DNA of 5,182 nucleotides, taken from positions 1-5,182 of the forward strand of contig JAWABG010000101.1 in assembly GCA_038884715.1 (NCBI GenBank). The letters are read 5' to 3'. Positions 71 to 5,182 of this stretch are shown one piece after another. The position numbers were made by a program, and so were the translations under genes. Each line of letters starts with the position of its first letter. The first letter of the stretch is position 1. Below the pieces are notes generated by a model that saw nothing but the letters and a program-made list of their open reading frames with translations, ran no database searches and had not been told where the DNA came from. Source of the stretch: Candidatus Woesearchaeota archaeon. Lineage in GTDB: Archaea; Nanobdellota; Nanobdellia; Woesearchaeales; UBA9642.

Positions 71-721
71 ATGAAAAAAATATTTTTTATTCTTGGTTTA
101 ATATTAGTCATTCCGCTAACAAATTTAAACGCTCAGAGAATTGGAAAACTTGCACCTGAAAAAGAACCGGAAATTTATCCGGATAATGCATGGGGAATTG
201 ATATTATGTTTGGTGAGTCAGGGTTTGGATTAGGTACATTTCTAAGAAGACAAATCGGAGGAAACTTCACTGCATTTGCTGATATTTCTTTTGCGGAAGC
301 TAAAGATGAAAGAGAAATTGAATACATTGATTACTTTGGACAAACATTTGTAATCGGTAAAAAGAATCGTGTCTTCCAGTTACCTCTTGTTTTGGGTTTA
401 CAGTACAGATTATTTAAAGGAGATATTGCAGATAATCTGCGACCTTACATCAGTGCAGGTGCCGGACCAACTTTAGTTATCACAACTCCATATGAAGAGG
501 AATTTTTCAGTGCATTCGGAAATGCTCAGTCCAAATTTGCGTTAGGTGGATATGTTGGAATAGGTGCAAACTTCGGAATTGATAAATCAAGTTTGGTTGG
601 ATTAAGTGTTCGGTATTTCAGAGTACAGTTTTTTGATGATGGAGTAGAAAGTCTGTTCGGCAGGTTCAAAGATAATTTAAGCGGATTCTTTATTGCTCTT
701 AACCTTGGGTTGATGTACTGA
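71..721 (+). CDS. Putative secreted outer-membrane beta-barrel protein (small porin/OmpW-like fold)
   Basis: The track ORF 26..721 opens on TTG. The first ATG at 71 gives MKKIFFILGLILVIPLTNLNAQ, a typical Sec signal peptide. The mature part has alternating hydrophobic beta-strand patterns (GLSVRYFRVQF, FFIALNLGLMY), Gly-rich turns and a C-terminal aromatic residue (Y). TGA stop at 719-721. Confidence 0.7.
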   Translation: MKKIFFILGLILVIPLTNLNAQRIGKLAPEKEPEIYPDNAWGIDIMFGESGFGLGTFLRRQIGGNFTAFADISFAEAKDEREIEYIDYFGQTFVIGKKNRVFQLPLVLGLQYRLFKGDIADNLRPYISAGAGPTLVITTPYEEEFFSAFGNAQSKFALGGYVGIGANFGIDKSSLVGLSVRYFRVQFFDDGVESLFGRFKDNLSGFFIALNLGLMY

Positions 722-744: not shown

Positions 745-874
745 TCTTAACGGCTCTGGCATAAGCCGCAACCGGTAATTTACAGCCAATGCTTTTATGT
801 GAATTAAATTTGTAAACTAACCTAATCCAAACTAACGACCGGAAAAGGTTTTCGGTTTGATGCCATTGTTAGGC
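745..874 (-). mobile_element. Integron attC recombination site (130 bp); on the minus/top strand R''=GCCTAAC (874..868) and R'=GTTAAGA (751..745)
   Basis: On the + strand TCTTAAC (745-751) faces GTTAGGC (868-874). Stem: 757-762 TGGCAT pairs with 860-865 ATGCCA, G859 is unpaired, 763-768 AAGCCG pairs with 853-858 (one G.T pair), then T852 is unpaired. Unpaired spacer is 5 nt (752-756) versus 2 nt (866-867). It starts 5 nt after the stop of the upstream minus-strand ORF. Confidence 0.75.
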
Positions 875-1575
875 AGTTTTTATTTTATTGACCAACCAAT
901 TCTGATAGCAGCTGTTAAACTAAAAAAATTACTACTACCGTGACTAAAAGGTTTATTAAATGGAAATTCGTTTTCGATAAAAGATAATGGATAAAAACTT
1001 ATTGTTCTACTTGTAATATAACGCCAGCCAATCCCAATTGAAAAATCTGAAACAAAACCGACAATGGAAATATTTTGATAACCATATTTCAAATGTAATG
1101 CACATTCATTTCTATAAACAGAGTATTTTTCAATAAAGCTATATATCTCTTCATCGGAAACTAAATATGCCCAATGATGATTTTTAGCATCTAAATAGCG
1201 ATAAAGAAAATCTATGCTGAAATATTGACCAATGTAAGTGGCTTCTTCTTTATCAATATATTTTCTTATTTCAGTTTCAAAAGTAAATCCACTTGAGTTA
1301 TCAAGATTAATAGAAAGAATATCGGGTTTTCTGTCAATATGTAATGAATATCCTAATTCTGAATTTATTGATAAATCTTCTGATAAACCTTTTTCAAGTC
1401 CAAATTGAATTGTTGAACTTTCATATTGAATTCCAGTTATCAAATCAAGTATGCTAAATTTTAAAATATAATCGTGCGAATATTCTTTTTGTTATGAATA
1501 ATTAATATTAATCCAAAGTACAAGGAAAAGTAATATTCTTTTTGTCATATTTTTCGTAAATGTTTATCTGCCTAA
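751..1575 (-). mobile_element. Integron gene cassette (825 bp) carrying the disrupted beta-strand-rich secreted protein gene
   Basis: Bounded by the G|TT crossover positions of R' GTTAGGC (1576..1570) and R' GTTAAGA (751..745). It holds one ORF followed by its own attC, and its size is typical of cassettes. Confidence 0.65.
880..1548 (-). pseudogene. Secreted beta-strand-rich (possible outer-membrane beta-barrel) protein gene interrupted by an in-frame TAA at codon 19
   Basis: ATG at 1548 encodes MTKRILLFLVLWININYS, which looks like a signal peptide, then TAA (1494..1492). The same frame continues QKEYSHDYILKFSILDL and runs straight into the track ORF 880..1443, 35 codons downstream of the ATG. 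The track ORF has no internal ATG and opens only on TTG. Alternating-hydrophobic strands include FSIGIGWRYI, ALHLKYGYQ and FSIDFLYRY. TAA stop at 880-882. Confidence 0.6.
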
Positions 1576-1760
1576 CGACGTTGCGGTTAAGCTGCTGCCC
1601 AAAACAGGGAAGCTAAACTTTTACACAACTGCCAATGATTATTAAAAAACTTTTTTATTAGAATTACTTTGAACAAGATACTTTAAACGGAATAACAAAC
1701 TCTAAAAAATTTAAAAAGCCGAATGCGAAAGAAGCAGTCAGCTTGAACCGCTGGTTAGGT
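1570..1760 (-). mobile_element. Integron attC recombination site (191 bp, long variable loop); on the minus/top strand R''=ACCTAAC (1760..1754) and R'=GTTAGGC (1576..1570)
   Basis: On the + strand GCCTAAC (1570-1576) faces GTTAGGT (1754-1760). 1583-1598 GCGGTTAAGCTGCTGC pairs with 1734-1751 GCAG[T]CAGCTT[G]AACCGC, giving 16 Watson-Crick pairs with extrahelical G1745 and T1738 exactly 6 bp apart. Spacer is GACGTT (6 nt) versus TG (2 nt). The minus strand reads GTT[C]AAGCTG[A]C, the same L'' layout I recall for attC_aadA7. Confidence 0.85.
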
Positions 1761-2405
1761 TACTGTTGCTGAACCTTTATTTTTATTTTTTAATTCTTGA
1801 AGTTCCTTTAATAAACTTGAATATTGATATACAGCCTTCAGAAATTCTTTTGCAAATTTAATTGCAACATCCAATTCAGTTTTCCCAATATCTTTATAAA
1901 CTTTTGCTTCAATATGTGCAGCATCGTTTCCAAGCAATCTAAGTTCGTCTATACCTTCAATAAATTCTTTGGGAATGACAATTTTATTTCCAAGATCAAT
2001 TATTCTTTCTTTCAAATTGTTCCCGGTAGAGCTTTTATCTTCACAAATTTCCTCAATTGTTCTACGAACCATTATGGCTGATGCAATATATAATTGGTGT
2101 GAATGACAAGAAATTGCTTCTTCAAATGTATTTACTACTTTATTCGGAATATCCGTTACATCAAAATCAATTCGCTGTGAAGGATAAGACGCAACAACTT
2201 CACTTTTCTGAGAATCATAAATGAAGAATATATGAGTTTTACAATTTTTATTTGGACATTTTCGTTGACCAAGCCAAAGATTATTAACAACTAAATCTCC
2301 AGTTATTACAACATTTTCAAAAGAACCTTCACGTCCACAACCAGGGCATCTAATTGGAAGAGTTCCCAAATTACCAGAACTTTCTGATGTAACTTTTACA
2401 ATCAT
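1755..2405 (-). CDS. Zinc-ribbon + DUF4145-like domain protein (216 aa), function unknown
   Basis: ATG at 2405 is preceded by GAGG. The N-terminus has CPGC (res 20-23) and CPNKNC (res 50-55), a four-Cys zinc-ribbon pattern. The C-terminal half (IPNKVVNTFEEAISCHSHQLYIASAIMVRRTIEEI...IEGIDELRLLGNDAAHIE...) matches my recollection of the DUF4145 (PF13643) signature, namely EA..C, A.m.RR.iE and lR.lGN.aaH. TAA stop at 1757..1755. Confidence 0.8.
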   Translation of the reverse strand: MIVKVTSESSGNLGTLPIRCPGCGREGSFENVVITGDLVVNNLWLGQRKCPNKNCKTHIFFIYDSQKSEVVASYPSQRIDFDVTDIPNKVVNTFEEAISCHSHQLYIASAIMVRRTIEEICEDKSSTGNNLKERIIDLGNKIVIPKEFIEGIDELRLLGNDAAHIEAKVYKDIGKTELDVAIKFAKEFLKAVYQYSSLLKELQELKNKNKGSATVT

Positions 2406-2410
2406 ATATA

Positions 2411-2414
2411 CCTC
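2411..2414 (-). promoter_or_regulatory. Shine-Dalgarno-like GAGG, 5 nt upstream of the ATG at 2405
   Basis: The minus strand reads GTTAGGTTACTGAGGTATATATG. GAGG is the reverse complement of 2411-2414, followed by a 5-nt spacer TATAT and then ATG. Confidence 0.5.
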
Positions 2415-2418
2415 AGTA

Positions 2419-2607
2419 ACCTAACGACGTTGCCGCTAACCGGCAGCCCAGAACAACAATACCGAATAGAAGCAACATCTTTTTATTTATAAAAATGTTT
2501 CCTAGAACAACCGACCTAAAAGAGAAACTTAGTTTTGTAAACCAACCACAATAATTAAAACAAAGCCGCACTGAAAAACGCTGTCCGTGTTGAGCGGCTT
2601 GTTATAT
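2419..2607 (-). mobile_element. Integron attC recombination site (189 bp, long variable loop); on the minus/top strand R''=ATATAAC (2607..2601, degenerate) and R'=GTTAGGT (2425..2419)
   Basis: On the + strand ACCTAAC (2419-2425) faces GTTATAT (2601-2607). 2432-2447 GCCGCTAACCGGCAGC pairs with 2580-2598, giving 16 Watson-Crick pairs with unpaired G2592, T2588 and T2584. Spacer is GACGTT (6 nt) versus TT (2 nt). The first 14 nt CCTAACGACGTTGC are identical to the site at 1571-1584. It starts 8 nt after the stop of ORF 2616..3143. Confidence 0.75.
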
Positions 2608-2615
2608 GTAAATAA

Positions 2616-3143
2616 TCATAGATACTTTAAAATAGACTTATGTAATTCATCTAAATAATAAATTGGATATTTTATTTTATAATCACTTATATAATTATAT
2701 CCATTTTTTTTCAAGAAATTTTCTCCATCTTTTGTGGCAGATATAGAGAATGAATGATTGAATTTTAAAGGAATATTATTGATATAATTTCTCATTTCTT
2801 TAAATATATTCTTTGTAAGAATAAATGCGTGCATATCCTTGCTGATTATAAAAGAAGAAAAATAAAGTGAAGGTATTAATGAATTATTGAAAGGTAGTAT
2901 CTCCTTTTCTGTAATTTGGTTAGAAACTATACGTTGATAAGAGTCTAAATCAGTTATTAAAAATGAAATAATGGATAATATCTTACCATCTTCAACTATA
3001 GCATTACAAAAAAACACATCGGAATTAAGCCAGTGAATGAATTCTTCTACTGTAGCTTTAAATTCACTAGGATAATGACAATTCTCAAATTCATTTATAC
3101 TTTGAGAATATTCTTTACATTTTTTAGTTGACCATAAAACCAT
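2616..3143 (-). CDS. Hypothetical cytoplasmic protein, possible GNAT-fold acyltransferase-like (175 aa)
   Basis: ATG at 3143 lies 1 nt after the upstream stop (TAATATG), and the stop is TGA at 2616-2618. The size and the C-terminal SATKDGENFLKKNGYNYIS resemble the GNAT motif-B region (x-G-xx-F/L-kk-G-F/Y). No clear Q/RxxGxG/A acetyl-CoA loop is visible, so the fold assignment is weak. Confidence 0.6.
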   Translation of the reverse strand: MVLWSTKKCKEYSQSINEFENCHYPSEFKATVEEFIHWLNSDVFFCNAIVEDGKILSIISFLITDLDSYQRIVSNQITEKEILPFNNSLIPSLYFSSFIISKDMHAFILTKNIFKEMRNYINNIPLKFNHSFSISATKDGENFLKKNGYNYISDYKIKYPIYYLDELHKSILKYL

Positions 3144-3144
3144 A

Positions 3145-3753
3145 TTAGAAATAATGCTTGCATCTATTTGTTAAATCGGCTATATATAATGGAATAATTA
3201 ATATCGCAAAAACAATTATTAACCAATAAAACGACTCGAATAACTTTGCAAATGGTAGAATAACAACCATACCATTTAAGAAAATAAAAAGAAGTAAATA
3301 AAGTACAACCAGAATGAGGTCAATTAATTCATTAAAAAGAAAATCACGTTTTTTTATTTCTTCTTCAGCCAACTCTTTTGATGAAGCTATTCGTTTAAGA
3401 ATCCAAGATACAGGGACTGGGAAATATATAAGAATGGGAAGTAAGCACACACTTAAAAAGAAAATATTAAAAACAAGACCATTTGAGTTAGATGAAATTA
3501 TTGATACAGCTTTAATTGGTTTTCCGTCACCTTTATCGGTACCATAATTCTCATTTTCCATACCTATTTGTGAAATAATTGTGTTAATTCTTGTTTTATG
3601 TTCAACTAGATTATCAATTTTACTTAAAGGACTAAATCCTATGAAATATAATGAGGAAAGATAAAATACTAATACCACTAGAAGAGGTAAAAATCTTTTA
3701 ATCTGGAATAAATTTCTTATGAGACCAAGATTCTCTAAAAAACTCTTATTCAT
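3145..3753 (-). CDS. Hypothetical integral membrane protein, about 4 TM helices (202 aa)
   Basis: Hydrophobic segments FLPLLVVLVFYLSSLYFIGF, GLVFNIFFLSVCLLPILIYFPVPVSWIL, LIDLILVVLYLLLFIFLNGMVVILPF and FYWLIIVFAILIIPLYIADL. The start overlaps the upstream gene's stop by 8 nt (ATGAATAA). TAA stop at 3145-3147. Confidence 0.65.
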   Translation of the reverse strand: MNKSFLENLGLIRNLFQIKRFLPLLVVLVFYLSSLYFIGFSPLSKIDNLVEHKTRINTIISQIGMENENYGTDKGDGKPIKAVSIISSNSNGLVFNIFFLSVCLLPILIYFPVPVSWILKRIASSKELAEEEIKKRDFLFNELIDLILVVLYLLLFIFLNGMVVILPFAKLFESFYWLIIVFAILIIPLYIADLTNRCKHYF

Positions 3754-5182
3754 TTTTCTTACTCCCGAATAATAAGTTGAATAAAATTGAAAAAAGAACT
3801 ACAAGTGCATTAGCAAAATCTATATGTGATGAATGGATGGGATAATTAAAGAAGTAAACACATATTATTAGAAGAATGCTAATGAATAAAGTCATATGAA
3901 ATACTATTTTGTTCAATTTATAACCAGAAACAACCAAAATGATTGGACCAACAAAGCCACTACCAAGATAAAAAATAAAAGCTAACCAAGTACCTAAGTT
4001 GATTTGGAATAAAATAAATGGAGCAATAATAACAACTATAATAAACACTAACCTTCTATACGATGATAAAGAATATTTTTTGAAATCATTATGTATCACT
4101 TGAAGTATTGCTAGTAGATATGTATCGGCAGTCGATAAAAGGGCACTTACAAACGTGAGTGTGCTTATAATAACTAAAGCTCCGAGTAAAATATTTTGGT
4201 TTTTTAATTCAAAAATAAGTGCTGAAAAACTTGTAAGATTAAATGAACGAGCAATTATGGAGAGTAAAATGGGTATTAAGTAGAGGTAAGATAGATGAAA
4301 AGTACTTGAATAATATTTTTTACCAATCACTTTTATGACATCATCTTCGGGAATATTAAACTTAATAATAGCGTTAGAAAATAGTGTTAATCGCTGCCAA
4401 GTATCAAAGTAAATCAGTTGTGAGAATATTAGACCAATTATTAATGACGGAATTAATAACAATAGGTTTATCTGTGATAAATCGTTGTATAGTATATTAC
4501 CAATTTCTGAATAATTAAAATTTGTCAATGGATGAGATAATATTATTATAAGTATTAGAGCCAAAGAACCAAAAATTATCATCCAAAATTGAATATAGTC
4601 TGTAATTACAACACTGTTATAACCACCAATAATTACATACCAGCCTAAAAGAATCAATATGATTAGTCCAATAATAAATGAATTCAAAGAGGTAAAACTT
4701 ACTTCAGCACTTAAAAAATTTACGGAATAACCATATATCTCAGTAAATAGGAAAAGAATTAGTGAAGCAATTACTATGAGAGCGGTTAACTTTCTTGCAA
4801 GTTTTGATTCTGTACGAATACCAATTAGTAGTGGGTAATATTCTTTCTTAAGTGAGTGAGCATATACTTTTTTTAGAAATAATTTTGGGAATATTAGAAA
4901 ACTAAGCAAATAACCTAAAGAGAAAAAGAATGCATAATAAACATTAAGAAGACCCATATAAAATAAACCTAAAAATGCTGTCGTGAAAGAGGCATTTGTT
5001 GCTGTCAAAGTTTTCTCAAATTTTACTAATGCATCGTTTTGTGAAATAAATTCTCCAAAATCAAAAAATTCATCAGTTGTACTGATTACCTTTTTAAGTT
5101 TTTTTGAAACATAAAGGATAATGCCGACGAAATAGAGTATTGTTATGATTATAACTAATTCCGTTAAGTCGAATGATGCCAT
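3746..5182 (-). CDS. Polytopic membrane transporter, divergent sodium:solute symporter (SSS, TC 2.A.21)-like (478 aa)
   Basis: About 12-13 hydrophobic helices. The N-terminus MASFDLTELVIIITILYFVGIILYVSKKLKK is of the SSS type. LTATNASFTTAFLGLFYMG, VVITDYIQFWMIIFG and FDTWQRL resemble conserved SSS blocks (at.S..t.lG, tD.iQ...m..g, QR). The ATG falls exactly on the window edge (5182..5180), so an upstream extension cannot be excluded. Confidence 0.7.
   Translation of the reverse strand: MASFDLTELVIIITILYFVGIILYVSKKLKKVISTTDEFFDFGEFISQNDALVKFEKTLTATNASFTTAFLGLFYMGLLNVYYAFFFSLGYLLSFLIFPKLFLKKVYAHSLKKEYYPLLIGIRTESKLARKLTALIVIASLILFLFTEIYGYSVNFLSAEVSFTSLNSFIIGLIILILLGWYVIIGGYNSVVITDYIQFWMIIFGSLALILIIILSHPLTNFNYSEIGNILYNDLSQINLLLLIPSLIIGLIFSQLIYFDTWQRLTLFSNAIIKFNIPEDDVIKVIGKKYYSSTFHLSYLYLIPILLSIIARSFNLTSFSALIFELKNQNILLGALVIISTLTFVSALLSTADTYLLAILQVIHNDFKKYSLSSYRRLVFIIVVIIAPFILFQINLGTWLAFIFYLGSGFVGPIILVVSGYKLNKIVFHMTLFISILLIICVYFFNYPIHSSHIDFANALVVLFSILFNLLFGSKKNE

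Follow-up and report, generated by a model that had tools for sequence, protein, structure and literature searches.

Which protein does a lone gene encode when it lies between two long inverted repeats, and what might carry such a gene between genomes? The question is raised by positions 1576 to 2424 of contig JAWABG010000101.1, deposited in an assembly labeled Candidatus Woesearchaeota archaeon (GCA_038884715.1); the window refers throughout to the whole 5,182-bp stretch of this contig that was analyzed. An initial annotation, made from the letters alone, described an 849-bp cassette with one open reading frame (ORF) and offered it as a candidate single-gene defense or stress effector. Our follow-up makes it probable that the product of the cassette is an abortive-infection defense protein of the RAZR (PD-T7-4) type, encoded by a single gene and working on its own. 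The defense proposal gained support from a match to the PD-T7-4 model, while an architecture of this kind, now that RAZR has been characterized, can no longer be called uncharacterized.

Protein architecture and relation to RAZR

PD-T7-4, from Escherichia coli and Klebsiella, has been renamed RAZR, for ring-activated zinc-finger RNase, with structures 9Y9C and 9Y6U in the PDB (Zhang et al., Nature 2026, PMC13017515; Vassallo et al. 2022, PMC9519451). Its N-terminal Cys4 zinc ribbon senses phage proteins and is followed by a linker and a C-terminal DUF4145 domain, a divergent HEPN RNase in which R146 and H154, spaced R-x7-H, are both needed for defense; single-stranded RNA is cleaved in vitro (PMC13017515). 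A 24-mer forms around large phage rings, such as SECphi27 Gp77 and T7-like portal proteins, and the activated enzyme cuts single-stranded RNA nonspecifically, leading to abortive infection (PMC13017515). The zinc-finger domain (ZFD) sets which phages RAZR recognizes and is its most variable region (PMC13017515).

The gene in the window occupies positions 1755 to 2405 of the minus strand and encodes 216 amino acids from an ATG start, with a Shine-Dalgarno GAGG (2411 to 2414, minus strand), read from the sequence, 5 nt 5' of the ATG. Its TAA stop (1755 to 1757) lies within the R'' core, ACCTAAC, of an attC-like site. Residues 1 to 74 (2184 to 2405, minus strand) form an N-terminal, beta-rich, zinc-ribbon-like Cys4 domain with C20 and C23 (CPGC) and C50 and C55 (CPNKNC) as predicted ligands. 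A conserved linker, PSQRIDFDVTDIP, spans residues 75 to 87 (2145 to 2183, minus strand) and aligns to residues 66 to 79 of the RAZR linker. Pfam and the helices of an AlphaFold2 model define residues 88 to 211 (1773 to 2144, minus strand) as an all-helical, C-terminal DUF4145/HEPN-like domain, within which R156-LLGNDAA-H164 (1914 to 1940, minus strand) is the predicted catalytic R-x7-H motif and the counterpart of RAZR R146...H154.

The motifs RCPGCG, KCPNKNC, FEEAISC, MVRRTIEE, and ELRLLGNDAAH are all present, and the DUF4145 pattern that had been recognized by eye corresponds to a Pfam match to PF13643 over residues 96 to 184 (52.5 bits, E value of 5.3e-14, gathering cutoff of 23.1). An NCBIfam search of the window proteins returned nothing meaningful for the 216-residue product. 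Across an alignment of 36 homologues (47 to 82% identity), C20, C23, C50, C55, R156, and H164 are invariant, as is P75, and P87 is kept in at least 90%. The zinc domain is well conserved within the clade, with the patterns RCPxCG..GTFE and GQRRCPN..C..H.F. Ratios of nonsynonymous to synonymous substitution of 0.13 and 0.07 against the two closest homologues (77 to 82% protein identity) indicate purifying selection on a real and constrained gene.

The sole significant PADLOC model for the protein was PD-T7-4 (PDLC04109; E value of 1.4e-8, 32.5 bits), which aligned residues 53 to 164 with profile positions 50 to 154 of 211. When 36 family members were tested, PD-T7-4 alone among the PADLOC models matched consistently, and it matched every one of them (best E value of 2.3e-12). 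When a profile of the window family was searched against the PDB, the top sequence match was RAZR chain 9y9c, with the Arg and His residues aligned. For direct comparison, full-length RAZR from E. coli (RAZR^Ec) was taken from an E. coli chromosome (locus L005, CFSAN064035); an 87-residue RAZR fragment was rejected as a query, having returned only short or partial proteins. BLASTP against RAZR^Ec gave 23% identity over 86 residues (E value of 0.002), in an alignment that takes in the linker and then the HEPN domain as far as the catalytic His. Alignment of the two family alignments by hhalign gave an E value of 2.2e-4 and a probability of 45%, and broader alignments of 220 and 119 sequences gave 1.6e-5 and 79%. 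A hidden Markov model (HMM) built from 220 members of the window family matched 99 of 119 RAZR-family proteins at an E value of ≤1e-3, and reciprocal HMM matches between the families ranged from 14 to 28 bits. These HMM alignments are colinear through the first CxxC, the second Cys pair, and the linker, and continue into R-x2-GN-x-A-x-H up to the catalytic His. HMMER, BLASTP, and hhalign all placed R156 and H164 opposite RAZR R146 and H154, and both BLASTP and hhalign paired P75 with P66 and D85-x-P87 with D77-x-P79; P66, D77, and P79 are invariant in the RAZR family alignment.

On these alignments, we file the window protein as a probable divergent member of RAZR/PD-T7-4 or of a sister clade to it. 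Homology of the effector domain and linker to those of RAZR is well supported by sequence comparison; the zinc domain agrees with that of RAZR in type and position and may be its structural equivalent. Both proteins are products of single genes of about 216 to 219 residues carried on mobile DNA, are matched by the PADLOC PD-T7-4 HMM, place an N-terminal Cys4 set at nearly equal positions (16/19/49/52 in RAZR and 20/23/50/55 in the window protein), and join it through a conserved Pro-rich linker to a DUF4145/HEPN domain with R-x2-GN-x-A-x-H and identical R-x7-H spacing. They differ in the second Cys pair (C-x4-C in the window protein, C-x2-C in RAZR), in an identity of only about 23% over linker and HEPN, in a ZFD fold match that went undetected, and in nonconservation of RAZR residues D179, D180, and R184. 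The vehicle also differs, the window gene being an integron cassette and RAZR^Ec a gene that overlaps an integrase at a tRNA-Gly island, as does the host, probably an AT-rich Ignavibacterium-like bacterium compared to E. coli and Klebsiella.

Because its motif is R-x7-H rather than Rx4-6H, the protein is classed from its sequence as a divergent HEPN of the DUF4145 type and not as a canonical HEPN. Canonical HEPN RNases (HepT, Csm6/Csx1, and TM0613-type proteins) have in common with it an alpha-helical fold and a predicted active site with a conserved Arg and His; unlike them, the window protein has neither an MNT antitoxin partner nor a CARF domain and carries a fused N-terminal zinc ribbon. 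The noncanonical spacing had raised doubt in the initial annotation about nuclease activity, a doubt answered by RAZR, whose catalytic R146 and H154 are also spaced R-x7-H (PMC13017515). The accompanying description of the protein as nucleic-acid binding is probably wrong for the zinc ribbon, as the zinc-finger domain of RAZR binds phage proteins instead. Ishtar anti-plasmid proteins also use a DUF4145-type HEPN domain in defense against mobile DNA, but with the HEPN domain at the N terminus and an unrelated C-terminal beta/alpha domain (bioRxiv 10.64898/2026.07.06.735840).

Structure prediction agreed with a HEPN assignment of the C-terminal domain, as had been anticipated. The full-length AlphaFold2 model (predicted local distance difference test score, pLDDT, of 80) has a seven-stranded N-terminal domain and helices at residues 88 to 211, and a model of the N-terminal domain alone was beta-rich with a mean pLDDT of 85.5. 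The top Foldseek matches of the full model in the PDB were the HEPN proteins 1o3u, 1ufb, and 1wol, with template modeling (TM) scores of 0.60 to 0.65 normalized to the target. The match to 1o3u had a Foldseek probability of 1.0 and a TM score of 0.65 to the target, and HepT, 5yep, and Csx1 were also among the matches.

The cassette and the spread of its family

The 849-bp unit (1576 to 2424, minus strand) is a real integron-type gene cassette, running from the TT of GTTAGGT (2425 to 2419) to the G of GTTAGGC (1576 to 1570) and holding one ORF and one attC. Its limits are the crossover points between G and TT, exactly as had been proposed. Read along the gene strand, the attC of the RAZR-like cassette (1570 to 1760, minus strand, 191 nt) consists of R'' ACCTAAC (1760 to 1754), a 5-nt spacer, L'' GTTCAAGC, in which one C is bulged, a variable loop some 120 nt long, L' GCTTAAC, a 9-nt spacer, and R' GTTAGGC (1576 to 1570); GTT(C)AAGC pairs with GCTTAAC. 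These L'' and L' boxes presumably match those of the classic attCaadA7. The attC of the preceding cassette or unit (2419 to 2607, minus strand, 189 nt), which gives the cassette its 5' boundary, has R'' ATATAAC, an L'' arm GCT(C)AAC(A)CGG(A)CAGC with three bulges, and R' GTTAGGT. On the plus strand, the two sites appear as inverted repeats of GCCTAAC (1570 to 1576) with GTTAGGT (1754 to 1760) and of ACCTAAC (2419 to 2425) with GTTATAT (2601 to 2607).

All AAC...GTT pairs 50 to 230 nt apart were scored by arm-to-arm duplex energy, with 100 dinucleotide shuffles of the window as the control. The site at 1570 to 1760 reached -20.6 kcal/mol and that at 2419 to 2607 reached -17.9 kcal/mol; the best duplex per shuffle averaged -11.9 kcal/mol with a minimum of -16.2 kcal/mol, and 0 of 100 reached -18 kcal/mol. 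The minimum free energy fold of 1570 to 1760 pairs both ends. Between the two sites, the R' arms share 83% identity across a 36-nt stretch, at a distance of exactly 849 bp. In both, the bulged bases sit on the ORF-proximal arm. The ATG follows the cassette start by 19 nt, within which the leader carries the Shine-Dalgarno sequence; ORFs begin 19 to 22 nt past R', and the sites are all oriented like the ORFs. The canonical cores, the bulged L'' arm, the stop codon inside R'', and an ORF start 19 nt past the recombination point together match these sites to attC.

A possible third and weaker attC (745 to 874, minus strand) has R'' GCCTAAC, R' GTTAAGA, and a duplex energy of -12.1 kcal/mol, which is inside the range of the shuffles and no better than chance. 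In position and orientation it suits an attC, and it would close the next cassette (ORF 880 to 1548) at the end of the array, beside a conserved outer membrane protein gene. Other ways of finding sites were less useful. A scan by simple match/mismatch arm alignment was rejected for lack of discrimination in AT-rich DNA, a constrained-hairpin scan because it chose wrong partners, and MAFFT alignment of natural attCs because different lengths were misaligned. Covariance models R1 and R2 were bootstrapped from two Rhodocyclaceae attCs and did not carry over to most other phyla or to the window. A search of the window against Rfam matched no known RNA family.

The family is large and widely scattered. 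It comprises 158 clusters (50% identity) at an E value of ≤1e-30 and 413 at ≤1e-10 among 1.84 billion representatives. In a set of 185,579 species genomes, a relative is encoded on 193 stretches, which come from Bacteroidota, Acidobacteriota, Proteobacteria, Actinomycetota, Chlorobiota, Verrucomicrobiota, Nitrospirota, and Firmicutes. Identities of only 42 to 56% across phyla are a signature of horizontal transfer. Predicted viral or proviral contigs also encode homologues (ten IMG/VR contigs, L086 to L095, 34 to 47% identity), so the family is carried by (pro)phages as well.

A survey of neighborhoods found no conserved housekeeping context. The 150 nearest neighbors of homologues fell into 147 different Pfam families, none recurring in more than five loci, and included helix-turn-helix proteins, tyrosine recombinases, integrases, GIY-YIG and HNH proteins, transposases, and GajA/AriA-like ATPases. 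This diversity and the absence of a recurrent partner gene among the 150 neighbors indicate a single-gene system. A significant attC-like hairpin directly follows the stop codon in at least 11 of 82 other loci by the duplex-energy test (about 1.6 expected by chance), and more attC-like sites were seen by eye at loci L038, L066, L053, and L037. In a Rhodocyclaceae metagenome-assembled genome (MAG; locus L018, CAZGYD010000205.1), the homologue (6955 to 7581) is a single-gene cassette between attC sites at 6866 to 6937 and 7583 to 7653, within a plus-strand array of about 19 attC sites from 500 to 13300 (covariance hits at E values of up to 0.1). Models R1 and R2 found large arrays at this locus and at L023, L013, and L038. 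A recombinase beside the homologue at L003, the closest one, was rejected as an integron integrase, with 51.9 bits against the TIGR02249 cutoff of 265.

A published survey of integron cassettes already ranks PD-T7-4 among the most frequent known defense systems there, behind PfiAT, Shedu, and AbiV (Darracq et al., bioRxiv 10.1101/2024.07.02.601686). The cassettes in that survey share with ours the family call and the compact single-gene format; they come from complete RefSeq genomes with a focus on Vibrio, whereas ours lies on a metagenomic contig of another phylum, with no integrase in the window.

Proposed mode of action and alternatives

By analogy with RAZR, we propose that the N-terminal Cys4 domain is an infection sensor and that the C-terminal DUF4145/HEPN-like domain is an RNase effector. 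The protein would be inactive in uninfected cells until its zinc-finger domain recognized a phage-made protein assembly, for which the large rings bound by RAZR^Ec, such as the portal protein, offer an example. Binding would rearrange HEPN dimers and create a composite active site from R156 and H164, and nonspecific cleavage of cellular and phage RNA would then stop translation and phage propagation, aborting the infection. The packaging itself is single gene and promoterless, in an integron-type cassette bounded by attC sites. Expression from such a cassette would depend on read-through transcription from the upstream genes or on shuffling of the cassette toward a promoter. An integron context would also explain why the family reaches many bacterial phyla at identities of about 50%.

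Several results weigh against this proposal. Similarity to the experimentally studied RAZR is remote (hhalign probability of only 45 to 79%), the profile match to 9y9c had an E value of only 0.11, and a single-sequence phmmer search of the PDB found no RAZR, its sole match being a chance one to PilB. Every Foldseek E value to HEPN proteins was above 0.01, the N-terminal domain model had no significant Foldseek match to the RAZR ZFD or to any zinc ribbon, and 9y9c was absent among the 50 best matches listed for both the full model and the N-terminal domain. The RAZR oligomerization residues D179, D180, and R184 lie past the aligned region, and no counterpart of the acidic pair or the Arg is evident in the window protein. 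This absence is our own reading of the alignments and concerns a mechanistic rather than a family-defining feature; the higher-order oligomerization interface of RAZR also includes V21. As for the cassette, a promoter scan found no promoter-like site within or just upstream of it, neither an integron integrase nor attI occurs in the 5,182-bp window, and the ad hoc covariance model R2, trained on attCs of Rhodocyclaceae, returned no full-length match of significance there. We attribute this last miss to the lineage specificity of the model and to the roughly 120-nt loops in the window, and still count it as a failed test.

One serious alternative is a different trigger logic, in which the protein is a defense HEPN RNase that senses infection in a manner unlike RAZR, is not activated on a ring scaffold, and belongs to a sister family resembling PD-T7-4 in the HEPN domain only. 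DS-38 provides the precedent and the suggestion: it is an experimentally validated single protein with a HEPN domain and a zinc finger distinct from that of PD-T7-4, compared here by description only (DefensePredictor, bioRxiv 10.1101/2025.01.08.631726). Such a reading would accommodate the C-x4-C spacing of the second Cys pair, the missing oligomerization residues, and a zinc domain that is well conserved in this clade and most variable in RAZR, and the lack of a detectable structural match between the two N-terminal domains suggests that trigger recognition may differ. However, the HMM alignments stay colinear outside the HEPN domain as well, taking in the linker and both Cys pairs; the domains are of nearly equal size, with their Cys residues at nearly equal positions; and Foldseek performs poorly on small, beta-rich zinc domains. 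We regard sensing of this separate kind as a tentative second choice to the RAZR-type protein proposed above. Within that proposal, activation on a ring scaffold is the least secure step, given that the dimer-dimer residues are not conserved and that the ZFD is conserved rather than variable.

Other explanations would leave out defense or the integron. A HEPN RNase toxin could act in stress-induced dormancy or stabilize a cassette array by addiction; dormancy and stress roles have been proposed for some HEPN proteins and toxin RNases have been noted in integron cassettes (Anantharaman et al. 2013, PMC3710099), where toxin-antitoxin systems are the commonest "defense" matches (bioRxiv 10.1101/2024.07.02.601686). 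This role seems unlikely for a cassette that has no adjacent antitoxin-like gene, a family with no conserved partner among its neighbors and PD-T7-4 as its only PADLOC match, and a closest characterized relative that is a phage-triggered abortive-infection protein. We give slightly less credence still to the idea that the flanking repeats are some other intergenic palindrome, which would make the gene an ordinary resident of a chromosomal island. The absence of an integrase or attI, the unusual length of the sites (about 190 nt), the insignificance of the third candidate, and the failure of the betaproteobacterial attC covariance model all favor such a reading. That failure has a technical explanation, as noted, and the RYYYAAC/GTTRRRY cores are canonical, the bulges fall on the ORF-proximal arm, a stop codon lies inside R'', spacing and orientation relative to the ORFs are regular, and homologues elsewhere sit in unmistakable attC arrays.

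Neighboring genes, contig origin, and significance

The archaeal label of the contig is probably a binning error. The same protein sequence is on deposit under MEM4261176.1, encoded on a 5,830-bp contig of a MAG labeled "Candidatus Woesearchaeota archaeon." In the window, an outer membrane beta-barrel gene with a signal peptide (71 to 721, plus strand) belongs to a cluster of Ignavibacterium proteins at ≥90% identity, making an archaeal origin unlikely, and the product of ORF 880 to 1443 clusters with Ignavibacteriales and Melioribacteraceae proteins. From these affinities, the contig is most likely bacterial and misbinned, and it would be wrong to cite it as an integron from an archaeon. The fraction of G and C is 0.37 to 0.385 over the outer membrane protein gene and 0.22 to 0.33 over the cassettes.

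The neighboring cassette gene (880 to 1548, minus strand) encodes 222 amino acids with a signal peptide in Ignavibacteriales (P0285). The copy in the window has an in-frame TAA at codon 19 (MTKRILLFLVLWININYS*QKEY...), reflecting either a pseudogene or a sequencing error, and only a 187-residue, TTG-started remnant is annotated. Directly upstream of the RAZR-like cassette, three tightly packed or overlapping genes (2616 to 5182, minus strand; G and C fraction of 0.22 to 0.29) end at the attC at 2419 to 2607. They encode a polytopic membrane protein of at least 478 residues with a faint resemblance to sodium-solute symporters (SSF), a 202-residue membrane protein, and a 175-residue protein without a family, and represent either an unusually large multigene cassette or the noncassette edge of the array.

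Further observations concern homologues elsewhere. A conserved ORF of about 106 residues begins approximately 17 nt past the stop codon of the homologue in four unrelated MAGs (L020, 10647 to 10967; L024, 3684 to 4001; L041, 4937 to 5254; L048, 10648 to 10965). It resembles a GIY-YIG nuclease (weak NCBIfam match; Pfam GIY-YIG count of 4) and may be a recurrent companion or a neighboring cassette. On a JGI contig (L001, Ga0675942_0002423), a gene for a 362-residue HNH_2 endonuclease (1072 to 2157), matching PADLOC HNH and type II restriction endonuclease models, follows a 77%-identical homologue at the edge of a housekeeping region (phosphotransferase system, polyprenyl synthase). As for RAZR^Ec itself (locus L005, 3118 to 5401), the gene overlaps the 3' end of a site-specific integrase gene by 8 nt beside tRNA-Gly, is followed by a Rha-family regulator, and occurs in 180 of 5,426 complete E. 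coli genomes. Many enterobacterial RAZR-like entries (P0121 to P0160) are only 109 to 153 residues long, without the zinc-finger domain or as partial or pseudogene calls; an example is a 109-residue protein from Salmonella Typhi found on 87 contigs. These entries are possibly ZFD-less or decayed copies of RAZR.

The recently solved RAZR family thus gains a divergent clade with well-defined boundaries, one that travels as integron cassettes in nonproteobacterial lineages, as on the Ignavibacterium-like contig of the window; MAGs with homologues include Rhodocyclaceae, Chlorobiota, Bacteroidota, and Acidobacteriota. No new mechanism or class of system is implied; the defense family is already characterized, and this kind of vehicle is already described. 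The travel of the clade in cassettes lends support to the idea that integrons store compact antiphage genes. Comparison of this clade, with its conserved ZFD, to the enterobacterial RAZRs, in which the ZFD is variable, could reveal how trigger specificity evolves. More speculatively, the clade, with about 158 clusters (50% identity) scattered at roughly 50% identity over more than 10 bacterial phyla and often in integron cassettes, might be a distinct sister family of RAZR, its unusually conserved zinc domain serving a different and perhaps more universal signal or a ring-free mode of activation. If so, it would represent a broadly portable, single-gene RNase immunity module of about 650 bp.

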